Sequence record: PZ049723.1
Reading direction: 5' to 3' (one strand)
DNA: 44,509 nt
Source of the DNA: a phage
Below are positions 10,160 to 30,950 of the stretch, one piece after another (the first letter of the stretch is position 1; each line of letters opens with the position of its first letter). Under the pieces are notes generated by a model, which was not told the origin of the DNA, did no database searches, and worked only from the letters and a program-made list of their open reading frames with translations. The position numbers were made by a program, and so were the translations under genes.

Positions 10160-10480
10160 TTATTCAGTCTCAGACGAGGGGGGCCGCCGACCCCCGTCTA
10201 GTCTGAAAGACTGGTGGTTGTCCCGCCTGTCCCGATCGGCTAAAAACCGCGGCAGCACTGGCGGGGACGGGGTGCTGTCCCGCTTTGTCCCGTCCCTTAT
10301 TTGTCCCGCTTTTTGTCCCGCTTAGTTTATGCAATAAAACTGCATAGGTATGCATATTTGCGGGGTGGGACAAAGCGGGACGTCCCGTCTGTCCCGCTTT
10401 TAGTTTATGCAATAAAAGTAAATAGGTATGCGGTTTTTGAGGGGCGGGACAAAACGGGATGTACCGCTTGTCCCGCTTCA
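10160..10480. repeat. Composite non-coding element, copy A (stem-loop + GTCCCGC arrays + TATGCA palindromes)
   Basis: 10160-10214 is a 55-nt GC-rich stem-loop identical except 2 nt to 27166-27220; 10269-10345 matches 27275-27351; about 12 GTCCCGC/GCGGGAC heptamers including palindrome CGGGACGTCCCG; TTAGTTTATGCAATAAAA box present twice. Confidence 0.7.
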
Positions 10481-27015: not shown

Positions 27016-27165
27016 TATTAATCACGCGCATGAAAAAGTTGATCGCTATCTGCTGTAGCTGCAAACTGCATTTTTCACCCACCATTCTACATATCGCATT
27101 GGTTGCCTAGTTCACCCACGACCGCGATTCGCATCCTGCTGCCGTGTATTTTGCAATCCCGGATT

Positions 27166-27351
27166 TTATTCAGTCTCAGACGAGGGGGGCCGTTGACCCC
27201 CGTCTAGTCTGAAAGACTGGGGTGCTGTCCCGCTGTCCCGCTCCTCGCCAGGCCGCGCCATCCGGGGCGGGACGGGGGTGCTGTCCCGCTTTGTCCCGCC
27301 CCTTGGCTGTCCCGCTTTTTGTCCCGCTTAGTTTATGCAATAAAACTGCAT
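27166..27351. repeat. Composite non-coding element, copy B
   Basis: 27166-27220 stem-loop identical to 10160-10214 except the loop (gccgTTga vs gccgCCga); 27275-27351 near-identical to 10269-10345; GTCCCGC arrays and TATGCA-N7-TGCATA palindrome. Confidence 0.7.
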
Positions 27352-27433
27352 AACTATTCACTATATTTACACTACACGGCAACCAATGCGACCAGCTAAA
27401 AACACTCGAAATGGCAACCAATGCGACCAGAAT

Positions 27434-27664
27434 TTAATCTTTTAAATCATCATCGGTCGCAGAAAGCGTGATGGGTATACTCGTTTTAATGACAATATTC
27501 GACGACCCGTAGATGGCCCCGGTGTGCGGATCGGTATAAAAACCGAGCACGCCGCGCTCGACCATATCGTCGATTGCCTTCGTCGATGTGCCACCTTTCG
27601 CCAGCCCAGCCTGGCGGACAATTGCCGATTTACTGAATCCGGTATGGTCCGGGTTATCTTCCAT
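27434..27664 (-). CDS. Small HTH DNA-binding protein (putative regulator)
   Basis: ATG at 27664 overlaps the helicase stop (ATGA); 76 aa; helix-turn-helix-like SKSAIVRQAGLAKGGTSTKAIDDMVERG; a longer in-frame start at 27691 is possible. Confidence 0.5.
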   Translation of the reverse strand: MEDNPDHTGFSKSAIVRQAGLAKGGTSTKAIDDMVERGVLGFYTDPHTGAIYGSSNIVIKTSIPITLSATDDDLKD

Positions 27665-29040
27665 CAGTTTTTCCAGTGCCGCATAAAGCACTTTCTCTTT
27701 TCGTTGCGCGGTCCCGCGGCGTTCTCTTCCTTAACTGCTGCCTTGCCCGCGGCCTTCGCCTGTTCGATGGCGAACGGTGCCAGGGCGACCGGTACGAGGT
27801 ACAGAGTCTCGTCGCGAGGCGTGGAGGCAATCGGCTTGACGTCCCAACCGGCGACCACATCACCGAAGTCCGGCCCGGTGCTGGTGGACTGGTGGGCTTC
27901 GAACGCCTCGGACTTGCGGAGATCCACCTTAACCTTGCACTTGAGCAGGACGAAGCCGCGCGGCGCTTGCTTGATGCCGTTACGTGCCTTTTCGTGATAC
28001 AGGTTAAGTTGTCCCGGCTGGTTGTCGTCCGGCTGTTCCAGGAAGAACGCGGAATCAACAGCACCATGAAGCGCGCCGGACCCGCGTGGCGTTCTGCTGC
28101 CGTTTGCACCTTTAGCAGGGTGGTGGATGACGCCCGCACTGCCGCCTGTATTTTCCGCAATGGCCTTCAGCGCCTTGACCACTTCGCCCATATCGCTGGC
28201 GTTGTTCTCGTCGAACGGTTTAGCATCGGCGGACCGCAGCGCAACAGTCTGGTTGAGTGAGTCGAATGCCACCAGGCCAACCGGTTCGCCGTTAGCGGTG
28301 CGGTTGATAAAGCTGATAACTTCGCGCAAGCCCGATTTGCTGGTGATATCCCAGCCGCGTGACTGCAGATCGATAATGTGCAGCTTGTCCAGGTCGTGCT
28401 CGTATTTAATCTGCAATGCCTCCTTACGCTGGTTGGAGGCTTCGCCACCTTCCGCGTCGAAATAGAAGCAATGAGACTGGACGACCTTCGCACCGCCAAA
28501 CGGAATACCCGCGGCAACCGCACCCATCTGCCCCAGCACGTAGAACGATTTACCGATGTTCGATTCGCCAGCCATATACCAGGTCGATTTGAAGTTAATC
28601 AACCCCTCGATGATCGGGTCGTGCTTACTGAACAGCGCAACCGGCTCGTTGTCCAGGTCTGCATCGGTGCACACGCCGTATTCTTCGCCGTCGCCAACTG
28701 CATCAACGATATGTTCATAGCAGGATTCCACTTCCTCGTCGTCCAGTCCTGGAAGGATGGCGGCGATTTGCTTGCGGGACATATTGTGTGGCTCGACGTT
28801 CAGGTGGTCCGGGATCCCGATAAGACGCAGCGCCAGGTGCTGGTGTCTGTTCAGTTCCGAGCAACACTCGTTGCCGGTGTGCATACACTTGAAACGGATC
28901 TCGCCATCCTTGACCATGATAGCCGTCGACCCTTCGCCGCTGTGCAGATGTTCGTTCGGGCACGGCACTTCATAACCCCGACCGGACGACAGCGGTTCGA
29001 ATCCGGCCTGGAAGCACCAATCCAGAATGCCGTCAGCCAC
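27664..29040 (-). CDS. Replicative helicase with N-terminal Zn finger (RecA-fold, RepA/DnaB-like)
   Basis: Walker A GESNIGKS and Walker B-like LVAFDSL; N-terminal Cys/His cluster (CPNEH ... CMHTGNECC); ORF opens immediately after an in-frame TAA and has only a GTG start. Confidence 0.65.
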   Translation of the reverse strand: MADGILDWCFQAGFEPLSSGRGYEVPCPNEHLHSGEGSTAIMVKDGEIRFKCMHTGNECCSELNRHQHLALRLIGIPDHLNVEPHNMSRKQIAAILPGLDDEEVESCYEHIVDAVGDGEEYGVCTDADLDNEPVALFSKHDPIIEGLINFKSTWYMAGESNIGKSFYVLGQMGAVAAGIPFGGAKVVQSHCFYFDAEGGEASNQRKEALQIKYEHDLDKLHIIDLQSRGWDITSKSGLREVISFINRTANGEPVGLVAFDSLNQTVALRSADAKPFDENNASDMGEVVKALKAIAENTGGSAGVIHHPAKGANGSRTPRGSGALHGAVDSAFFLEQPDDNQPGQLNLYHEKARNGIKQAPRGFVLLKCKVKVDLRKSEAFEAHQSTSTGPDFGDVVAGWDVKPIASTPRDETLYLVPVALAPFAIEQAKAAGKAAVKEENAAGPRNEKRKCFMRHWKN

Positions 29041-29696
29041 CCCATCATCGCCCTGGGTAAGCTCGCGGCGTACTTCCTCTTCTCCACCCCCAGCTTATCC
29101 GCCAGGCGGAGCAGACGACGGACGCTGGCGCGTTTGCCGTAGTGGCACTTAACGACAGACTGCTGATGTGGCAGGTACATAAGGCGGTTTGTGTCTTTAG
29201 TACAATCGTCGAAGTCCACATCTGACAGACCCAGTTGGTGTAATAGTGCATACTGGACGCGGCCCAGGTCTTCAGCCGGTACAGGCTTGTCCGTGAGCAC
29301 CAGGAAACGGGCGCAACGCGTGCCGCCTTTCAGCGGGTGGCGGTCGCCGGTTGTGGTGTGAAATACGTGCTCCAGTCCCGCGTCGATGAACGCCTTACGG
29401 CAGCGGCGTAGGGTGCGGGTGTCGGTACGGTCGATATCGAAGAACATGATCGAGCGGTCCACCGCACTGGTCTTACGACGCAATCCGTCACGGGTATACG
29501 CCACGATGCCATCGGCCTTACGCTTGCGGCGCGCATACTCGGCTTTATCTTCCGTCTTGTTGATATGCACCGAGGAGATTTCTTTCGCATCATTGATAAA
29601 GGCGAAAAACTCTTCGGTAGTCATCTGGAAGTTTTCCGCCCTGGCTTTTTCGCCTTTTTTAGCGGGTCGTGTTACAGCGAATTTAATTAAGCTCAT
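28851..29696 (-). CDS. Primase-like replication protein, N-terminal part; 3' end overlaps helicase out of frame
   Basis: ATG at 29696; DxD-like FFDIDRTD and HTTTGDRHP motifs; last ~60 codons are Arg/Ser/Cys-rich and read as the wrong frame of the helicase N-terminus; G5 run at 29087-29091. Confidence 0.4.
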   Translation of the reverse strand: MSLIKFAVTRPAKKGEKARAENFQMTTEEFFAFINDAKEISSVHINKTEDKAEYARRKRKADGIVAYTRDGLRRKTSAVDRSIMFFDIDRTDTRTLRRCRKAFIDAGLEHVFHTTTGDRHPLKGGTRCARFLVLTDKPVPAEDLGRVQYALLHQLGLSDVDFDDCTKDTNRLMYLPHQQSVVKCHYGKRASVRRLLRLADKLGVEKRKYAASLPRAMMGWLTAFWIGASRPDSNRCRPVGVMKCRARTNICTAAKGRRLSWSRMARSVSSVCTPATSVARN

Positions 29697-29706
29697 TGCC
29701 GTGGCC

Positions 29707-30036
29707 TTACTTAGAAGTTTTATTATTGCGTACCCAAGAGCGCACTGTGCTCTGATTAATTCCGGTCAACTCGGCAATCATCGCCCAGGATTTGCCCTCG
29801 GCGCGCAAACGGATAACCTGCTTTTTGTATTCTTCCATTTCTTCATTGTGTTTTTGCAGCTTGCTTGCTGCCGTACCGTTGAGTAATTCCAGCCGGGCGC
29901 GCAATTCTTTTTCGACACTGCGCAGGCGCTCGATTTCAAATAACACCGCACCCACGGCATCGGTATAAGCCCATGACCGGCTTGTCTCACTGCAAACAGT
30001 CTTCGTTAACATTTCGATTGCGTCGTTTACATTCAT
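29707..30036 (-). CDS. HTH transcriptional regulator (LuxR/sigma region-4-like C-terminal HTH)
   Basis: 109 aa; C-terminal SWAMIAELTGINQSTVRSWV; first gene of the leftward operon from the divergent promoter region. Confidence 0.6.
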   Translation of the reverse strand: MNVNDAIEMLTKTVCSETSRSWAYTDAVGAVLFEIERLRSVEKELRARLELLNGTAASKLQKHNEEMEEYKKQVIRLRAEGKSWAMIAELTGINQSTVRSWVRNNKTSK

Positions 30037-30241: not shown

Positions 30242-30437
30242 TCTCCCCGTCGACAGGATGCAGGACGCAAACTGGAGAGGGGCAACGCAGGGGCCGGATC
30301 GAAGTGTCAGGATTCCCAACCGTGATTATATAACCAGGTCCACTACCCGAAGGGGAGAACGCGTAACCTGGCAATATGTTAAGGCCACCGACGAAGTTAA
30401 CTGCCGACACCTAAACTTAACCAATCGGAGATATACC

Positions 30438-30950
30438 ATGTTTGAGCAAATCGTAAACCTGATCACTCGCGGCGTAGTAGCACTGGAAACCATCGCTAAA
30501 CATTATGAAACCGTTGGCGCTGCCGTTGGTAAGCAGGAGGACAAGAAGCCGTCTAAGGCCAAAAAAGAAGTTGTCGAAGATGACGACGATGACGCCGAAG
30601 ACGAAAAACCGGCTAAATCTAAAAAAGCCCCGGCGAAAGGCAAGGCCAAAAAAGAAGTCGTAGAAGACGACGACGATGCCGAAGACGAAAAACCGGCTAA
30701 GGCTAAGAAAGCACCGGCGAAAGGCAAAGGTAAGAAAGATGCCGATCCGCTGGCAGAGATGCGCGACGAGATCAAACAATATGCCGCGATTATCGCTGGC
30801 GGTGATGACGACGACGCGAACGACGAATTCGACGACCTGCTGGAGTCGTTCGAGATCAAATCAATCGCCAAGCTGGAAGATGACGACGTCGAAGACTTCC
30901 ACACAGAGCTAAAAGAAATCGTCGAAACCTATTTCGAATTGGAAGATTAA
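30438..30950 (+). CDS. Highly acidic tandem-repeat protein; first early gene (DNA-mimic / anti-restriction candidate)
   Basis: ATG at 30438 with GGAG RBS; 170 aa; two copies of KKEVVEDDDDxAEDEKPAKxKKAPAKGK and acidic C-terminus; followed by terminator. Confidence 0.65.
   Translation: MFEQIVNLITRGVVALETIAKHYETVGAAVGKQEDKKPSKAKKEVVEDDDDDAEDEKPAKSKKAPAKGKAKKEVVEDDDDAEDEKPAKAKKAPAKGKGKKDADPLAEMRDEIKQYAAIIAGGDDDDANDEFDDLLESFEIKSIAKLEDDDVEDFHTELKEIVETYFELED

Follow-up and report, generated by a model that had tools for sequence, protein, structure and literature searches.

Reading frames and the gene at the locus

The window (the whole 44,509-nt stretch of phage DNA analyzed here, sequence record PZ049723.1) matches its relatives as a genome of the genus Dhillonvirus (HK578-like coliphage; siphovirus). 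On its minus strand, upstream of a repeat region, lie three reading frames, with the following features:

27434..29696, minus strand: whole primase-helicase gene, orthologue of HK578 gp46 and SO-1 gp48
29696-28851, minus strand: ORF1, ATG start, 281 aa
29079..29696, minus strand: authentic N-terminal part of the protein, residues 1-206, predicted AEP/PrimPol-fold primase domain
28851..29078, minus strand: wrong-frame tail of ORF1, 75 Arg/Ser/Cys-rich codons and a stop, the +1 reading of the Cys/His-cluster region
29097-29095, minus strand: TAA bounding the helicase frame upstream, an out-of-frame reading of GAT AAG (Asp-Lys)
29091-29087, minus strand: G5 run, which intact genes of relatives have as GGGGG or GGGAG
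29040-27664, minus strand: ORF2, GTG start, 458 aa, comprising native residues 220-667, 10 wrong-frame codons and TGA
27691-27434, minus strand: ORF3, GTG start, 85 aa, native residues 670-754 in a third frame

The sequence-only reading of this DNA described a primase-like ORF overlapping, out of frame, a Zn-finger/helicase ORF. Minus-strand reading and the ORF listing confirm the features it named, namely the ORF at 29696-28851, the TAA at 29097-29095, the G5 run and the helicase ORF having only a GTG start (29040), which is the first start codon in that frame. The two frames do differ by one nucleotide, the helicase frame being -1 relative to the primase frame. The tail of ORF1 (residues 207-281; 12 Arg, 9 Ser and 4 Cys, counted by eye) is wrong-frame sequence as described, but it runs for 75 codons rather than about 60. 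The native part of ORF2 contains a conserved Cys/His cluster and a RepA-like RecA-fold helicase, while ORF3, which that reading did not mention, is the C-terminal helical domain of the native protein, a domain that we infer to be a winged helix.

GenBank has 157 phage records matching the locus, almost all from Escherichia or Shigella phages of the genus Dhillonvirus. The window sequence itself is absent from the phage collection, IMG/VR, the metagenome contigs and the protein-position index, and exact matches to the proteins of ORF1, ORF2 and the neighboring nuclease are likewise not on record. The locus shares 97% identity with phages ZCEC10, ZCEC11 and ZCEC12 and ~94% with most other matching phages, and the rest of the window is ~92% identical to the same phages. 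A near-identical genome for counting differences was not found, the best being ZCEC11 (96.8% over the locus). Over the window's first 25 kb, the highest identity is ~92-93%, to phages other than ZCEC10/11/12, versus 97% at the primase-helicase locus. This unevenness points to a mosaic or recombinant ancestry around the replication module.

Relatives are annotated with one 2265-nt CDS at this position, encoding a 754-aa "DNA primase/helicase" or "replicative helicase-primase" directly after a 109-aa helix-turn-helix (HTH) gene. The window gene likewise lies between the 109-aa HTH gene and the repeat region, spanning 2263 nt versus the 2265 nt of relatives, in three reading frames. One uninterrupted gene of ~754 aa is found in about 150 GenBank relatives, 13 IMG/VR contigs and eight metagenome or genome contigs. 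In all eight of the latter, which are independent, the 754-aa product is called beside an identical HTH protein. The Dhillonvirus helicase-primases (HK578 gp46, Sodalis phage SO-1 gp48 and phage Envy gp57; PHROG 3228) are orthologous to the window gene, with 94-97% identical DNA, the same position and, once the window copy is restored, the same length of 754 aa. The window copy differs from the family in being broken by two 1-nt deletions.

The restored protein sequence was used to query 5.8 billion proteins. Among the matches listed, the 120 homologues have identities between 98% and 43%, and their lengths are 747-781 aa with one exception, a fragment truncated by the end of its 1.4-kb contig; they include proteins of Salmonella phages FSL SP-031, St162 and VSiP. 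The PHROG 3228 profile ("replicative helicase-primase") aligns with residues 1-752 of the restored protein in one stretch, covering profile positions 3-765 of 766 (1141 bits). Members of this family have a single uninterrupted ORF of ~750 aa, whereas the window has three open frames, and we conclude that the window holds a PHROG 3228 family member that is either a disrupted allele or mis-sequenced.

The sequence-only reading had also entertained two genes, one with an unusual start. Separate ancestry of two or three genes, with a simple overlap between a primase and a helicase that has an unusual GTG start, would be compatible with domains that fold independently and with plasmid RSF1010, where the homologous functions are encoded apart. 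Against this, zero relatives encode separate proteins with these boundaries, which refutes it by the criterion that the sequence-only reading had itself set; complete homologues among the matches listed are single 747-781-aa proteins down to 43% identity, and the PHROG 3228 profile matches end to end. The ORF1 overlap is moreover the wrong frame of conserved Cys/His-cluster sequence. We regard ancestral separation as exceedingly improbable.

Two features lie upstream of the gene. The 109-aa gene (29707-30036, minus strand) has only HTH_23, HTH_28 and sigma-70 region 4 matches in Pfam, and is inconsistently named across GenBank relatives ("transposase", "resolvase" or "DNA recombination nuclease inhibitor gamma"). 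The OLD preprint regards its HK578 counterpart, gp45, as part of an operon with the helicase-primase, and describes an HK578 gp46 point-mutation escaper. On the plus strand, the ORF at 30258-30950 encodes an acidic/lysine-rich protein with a tandem duplication (KKEVVEDDDD(D)AEDEKPAK(S/A)KKAPAKGK, two copies). The called lengths of its orthologues range from 133 to 202 aa among relatives, which suggests variation in repeat number.

Two single-base deletions in the window copy

Global and BLAST alignments to more than 20 relatives contain exactly two 1-nt gaps, in the same places every time:

29081-29080, minus strand: deletion site 1, AAA of relatives shortened to AA; codon 206, context GGTGGA[A/G]AAAGAGGAAG
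27701-27698, minus strand: deletion site 2, A5 of relatives shortened to A4; codons 666-668

Site 1 reads GGAGAAGAGG in the window (longer context GGGGGTGGAGAAGAGGAAG) and GGAAAAAGAGG or GGAGAAAGAGG in relatives (longer context GGGGGTGGAAAAAGAGGAAG). The deletion lies 6-7 nt 3' of the G5 run and shifts the downstream reading to the -1 frame. At site 2 the window has CAACGAAAAGAGAAAG versus CAACGAAAAAGAGAAAG in relatives; ORF2 consequently closes with 10 codons read in the wrong frame, and the gene's last 85 codons pass to the third frame. Alignment of both frames to the primase-helicases of related phages, a check that the sequence-only reading had itself proposed, thus recovers one continuous gene with two 1-nt gaps. 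Its favored idea of a single-base indel in a fused primase-helicase was sound as far as it went, since every relative examined has one 2265-nt ORF and a base is missing from the window, but the second deletion had been missed. The G5 run, which that reading noted in the switch region, is unchanged in intact relatives, and the missing base is in the adjacent A-run.

Restoring one A per site yields a 754-aa protein that differs from ZCEC11 at nine nonsynonymous and 61 synonymous codons, distributed over all three segments. These counts indicate that purifying selection acted on the gene as a single ORF until very recently, and that the breaks are recent mutations or artefacts. Pseudogenization in the sense of long-term decay, another of the earlier suggestions, finds no support in them.

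The window's version of site 1 is absent from GenBank phage records (42-nt query), IMG/VR contigs and metagenome contigs, the two contig collections being scanned with variable-gap patterns; the intact version occurs in 29 phage records with matching flanks. At site 2, a single GenBank phage record, phiEco273 (PP786691), has A4, versus 105 records with A5, and none of the true relatives in IMG/VR or among metagenome contigs has A4. Several hits of these scans were discarded. IMG/VR locus L013, which matched the pattern with a 4-nt spacer, is an unrelated high-GC phage matching by chance, and chance also accounts for the N3 and N6 matches and for L042, itself unrelated, in the metagenome scan. 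The genome of phiEco273, otherwise intact, has the same contraction independently of the window, on a different local haplotype. Its gene is annotated as two "putative helicase primase" CDS. The literature yielded no report of a frameshift in the helicase-primase gene and nothing useful on phiEco273.

Genome-wide alignment to five complete relatives identified only these two uncompensated 1-2-nt indels as absent from all five. An apparent third window-specific 1-nt deletion, at 27159, was rejected as a natural C3/C4 polymorphism common to many relatives. Single open frames of the window cover at least 90% of each of 57 of the 62 CDS of phage JLBYU37 (RefSeq), and the primase-helicase is the only CDS that is split. 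The remaining JLBYU37 CDS are three tiny ones without a match and a tail fibre, which is a divergent allele contained within one frame.

Both ORFs described by the sequence-only reading are therefore very probably pieces of one conserved 754-aa Dhillonvirus replicative primase-helicase interrupted by two 1-nt deletions. Two single-base losses in short A-runs inside purine tracts would have spread the gene over three frames, and these losses would account, as by-products, for the overlap between frames, for the tail rich in Arg/Ser/Cys and for the apparent GTG start. The GTG at 29040 would simply be an internal Val codon of the native protein.

A layout of overlapping frames next to a homopolymer also raises the idea that ribosomes are programmed to shift by -1, or that transcription slips, at the G5 or A-run, to yield primase-only and fusion products. 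In its favor, the helicase frame is -1, and the stretch from the -1-frame TAA to the divergence of the two frames contains a G_GGG tetramer. In these respects, overlapping -1 frames and a nearby homopolymer, the site resembles the programmed sites of dnaX, IS3/IS911 and the phage tail chaperone G/GT. It is not a member of that group, for it has no slippery heptamer, conserved two-frame layout or stimulatory structure. As the sequence-only reading had said, there is no canonical heptamer (the site reads CTG GGG GTG GAG AAG, with the G_GGG tetramer only, and no X_XXY_YYZ is present in the upstream frame), and shuffled sequences fold as well as the 87 nt that follow each site (z = -1.54 and -0.49). 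Efficient slippage by RNA polymerase needs long runs, and A5, A4 and G5 are shorter, which counts against recoding as well. The second, independent frameshift would need recoding too, and the two-frame layout is unique to the window sequence. In E. coli, G_GG.G is not shift-prone, and A_AA.G shifts at about 0.15% without a stimulator and at 5.6% only with a strong pseudoknot (PMC4066793, Sharma et al. 2014). Programmed recoding is effectively excluded by the in-frame gene of all relatives; we consider it highly improbable and conclude that the breaks are not an evolved recoding signal.

Domain anatomy of the restored protein

An AlphaFold2 model was built for a protein 98% identical to the restored one (P0001), and its N-terminal domain was also modelled separately. 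The model has a confident N-terminal domain (residues 1-206) followed by a low-confidence linker (207-218), after which come the Cys/His-cluster region and the ATPase core. A second low-confidence stretch (618-660) precedes a helical C-terminal domain (666-737), whose helices at 666-715 have a pLDDT of about 70-84. These borders place both deletions at predicted interdomain linkers. From the N terminus onward, the protein comprises an AEP-fold primase, a cluster of Cys and His residues that probably binds Zn, an ATPase of the RepA-like hexameric-helicase kind and a helical domain at the C terminus.

The modelled N-terminal domain has the AEP catalytic-core fold. Across 38 sequences, D87-x-D89 and D163 are invariant and H113 is nearly so, making these residues candidates for the catalytic motifs of the superfamily (DxD, sxH and hD). 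Residues 1-206 match no Pfam family even at E up to 10, and their matches to PHROG primases are weak (phrog_9765, E 1e-5); the structural model suggests an AEP/PrimPol-fold primase. The helicase region matches Pfam AAA_25 (PF13481) with 70.7 bits against a cut-off of 27 (E 1.7e-19), and a Walker-A-like stretch (G377...G382-K383-S384) is invariant. Also invariant are C246, H252, C271, H273 and C279, which probably form a Zn-binding module, judging by the conserved residues. A PDB sequence search with the full protein returned nothing significant. Top Foldseek matches of the helicase domain are RSF1010 RepA structures (1nlf, 1olo and 1g8y; E about 1e-7), and the T7 replisome (5ikn) was also matched; matches to the helicase domain dominated the Foldseek search with the full-length model, which is why the N-terminal domain was modelled on its own. 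From such comparisons we infer the functional roles of the primase, helicase and C-terminal domains.

RSF1010 encodes RepB' (an AEP primase) and RepA (a hexameric helicase) as separate proteins, whereas the phage family has the two fused, together with the Cys/His cluster and a C-terminal domain. Sequence identity between the RSF1010 proteins and the phage domains is only 12-19%. Phage T7 gp4 and the P4 alpha protein likewise join a primase and a replicative helicase in one polypeptide, with an origin-binding domain at the C terminus of P4 alpha, but the Dhillonvirus protein falls outside those families. The primase of T7 gp4 is of the DnaG/TOPRIM type, in contrast to the AEP/PrimPol fold of the Dhillonvirus protein.

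The primase-helicase gene is followed directly by an iteron-like array (27090-27430), with at least seven copies of TGTCCCGCT at 27224-27332. Repeats extend over 27215-27332, and the array is flanked by 14-nt inverted repeats (GGCAACCAATGCGA). The region also has a G/C hairpin element, CCCCCGTCTAGTCTGAAAGACTGG, that recurs at 10191, within region 10190-10470. The iteron region and region 10190-10470 correspond to "region B" and "region A" of Sodalis phage SO-1, which are annotated as possible origins. We suggest that these iteron-like and hairpin regions may be the binding target of the C-terminal domain of the primase-helicase.

Origin of the deletions

Whether the bases are missing from the phage or only from its sequence is a separate question. 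We lean slightly toward sequencing or consensus errors. Both lesions are 1-nt contractions of A-runs in 13-14-nt purine tracts with a common core, GA(A/G)AAAGAG, and a double break in an apparently essential replication gene is hard to reconcile with viability. The A5 to A4 change of phiEco273 could itself be a context-specific miscall.

Very recent genuine mutation, to which we give a substantial though less than even probability, draws on a different set of observations. The assembly has no other frameshifts beyond the two unshared deletions. Random error fits poorly with the fact that this gene holds only 4-5% of the A/T runs of the genome, and with the absence, at all 17 A/T runs of six or more, of any indel lacking from all aligned relatives. 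The location of both breaks at predicted linkers and the occurrence of A4 in phiEco273 on a different haplotype likewise count against plain random error. A systematic context error at GARAAAGAG was considered and rejected, the other copies in the genome (GAAAAAGAG or GAGAAAGAG) being intact. Taken together, the lone indels, the intact copies, the linker positions and the recurrence in phiEco273 make genuine and tolerated deletions more likely; the same points give no support to two ancestral genes or to programmed recoding. Explanations beyond error, genuine mutation, and a functional split or slippage rescue have very little probability left to them.

Genuine deletions would have to be tolerated because the protein is modular and both cuts fall in flexible linkers, a reading that we find somewhat unlikely. 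The three modules would then be made as separate polypeptides from internal GTG starts or by termination-reinitiation, or else a little full-length protein would arise by spontaneous -1 slippage. The indels do border confidently folded domains (low confidence at 207-218, and at 618-660 up to the helix from 666), they are the sole coding frameshifts in an otherwise intact genome, and an isolated, otherwise intact phage, phiEco273, has the site-2 A4 too. RSF1010 RepB' and RepA, the structural neighbors of these domains, are separate proteins. The stop of ORF2 overlaps an in-frame ATG of the third frame (CTGATGG). Slipping back one nucleotide on GAA_AAG (A_AAG) at site 2 would recover precisely the native sequence, and doing so on G_GGG at site 1 would give a protein of the same length with three substitutions.

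Several observations weigh against such tolerance. No relative in any collection has kept the split, and ORF1 would bear 75 junk residues. A properly spaced Shine-Dalgarno sequence is lacking at the GTG at 29040, where just a GGGG directly abuts the codon, and nothing better than AAGAG, 3 nt upstream, precedes the GTG at 27691. For an isolate, a frameshifted replication gene that looks essential would, as a rule, more often reflect an error than a mutation. Unstimulated tetramer slippage, at about 0.1-0.2% (PMC4066793), would leave a negligible amount of full-length protein through both sites. A functional split or slippage rescue is accordingly unlikely in our estimation, and we are a shade more doubtful of the full proposition that both deletions are genuine in a plaque-forming phage whose tri-modular protein works when cut at two linkers or is rescued by slippage.

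The gene itself is already known and the finding is an ordinary one: a conserved Dhillonvirus primase-helicase, broken twice in this sequence. Its value is for annotation. The three ORFs should be recorded as one frameshifted primase-helicase gene, or the sequence corrected; separate primase, helicase and hypothetical genes, or a recoding site, would be the wrong annotation for them. Were the tolerated split true, the phage would be a natural experiment on a tri-modular replication protein divided into an AEP primase, a Cys/His-helicase and a C-terminal domain, and the independent recurrence in phiEco273 would point to an A-run that is prone to mutation and tolerates it, not to an artefact of sequencing. 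Even then the current understanding of phage replication would be unchanged, and real deletions would make a modest point about the modularity of AEP-primase/RepA-helicase fusions and the tolerance of frameshifts at linker-encoding A-runs.
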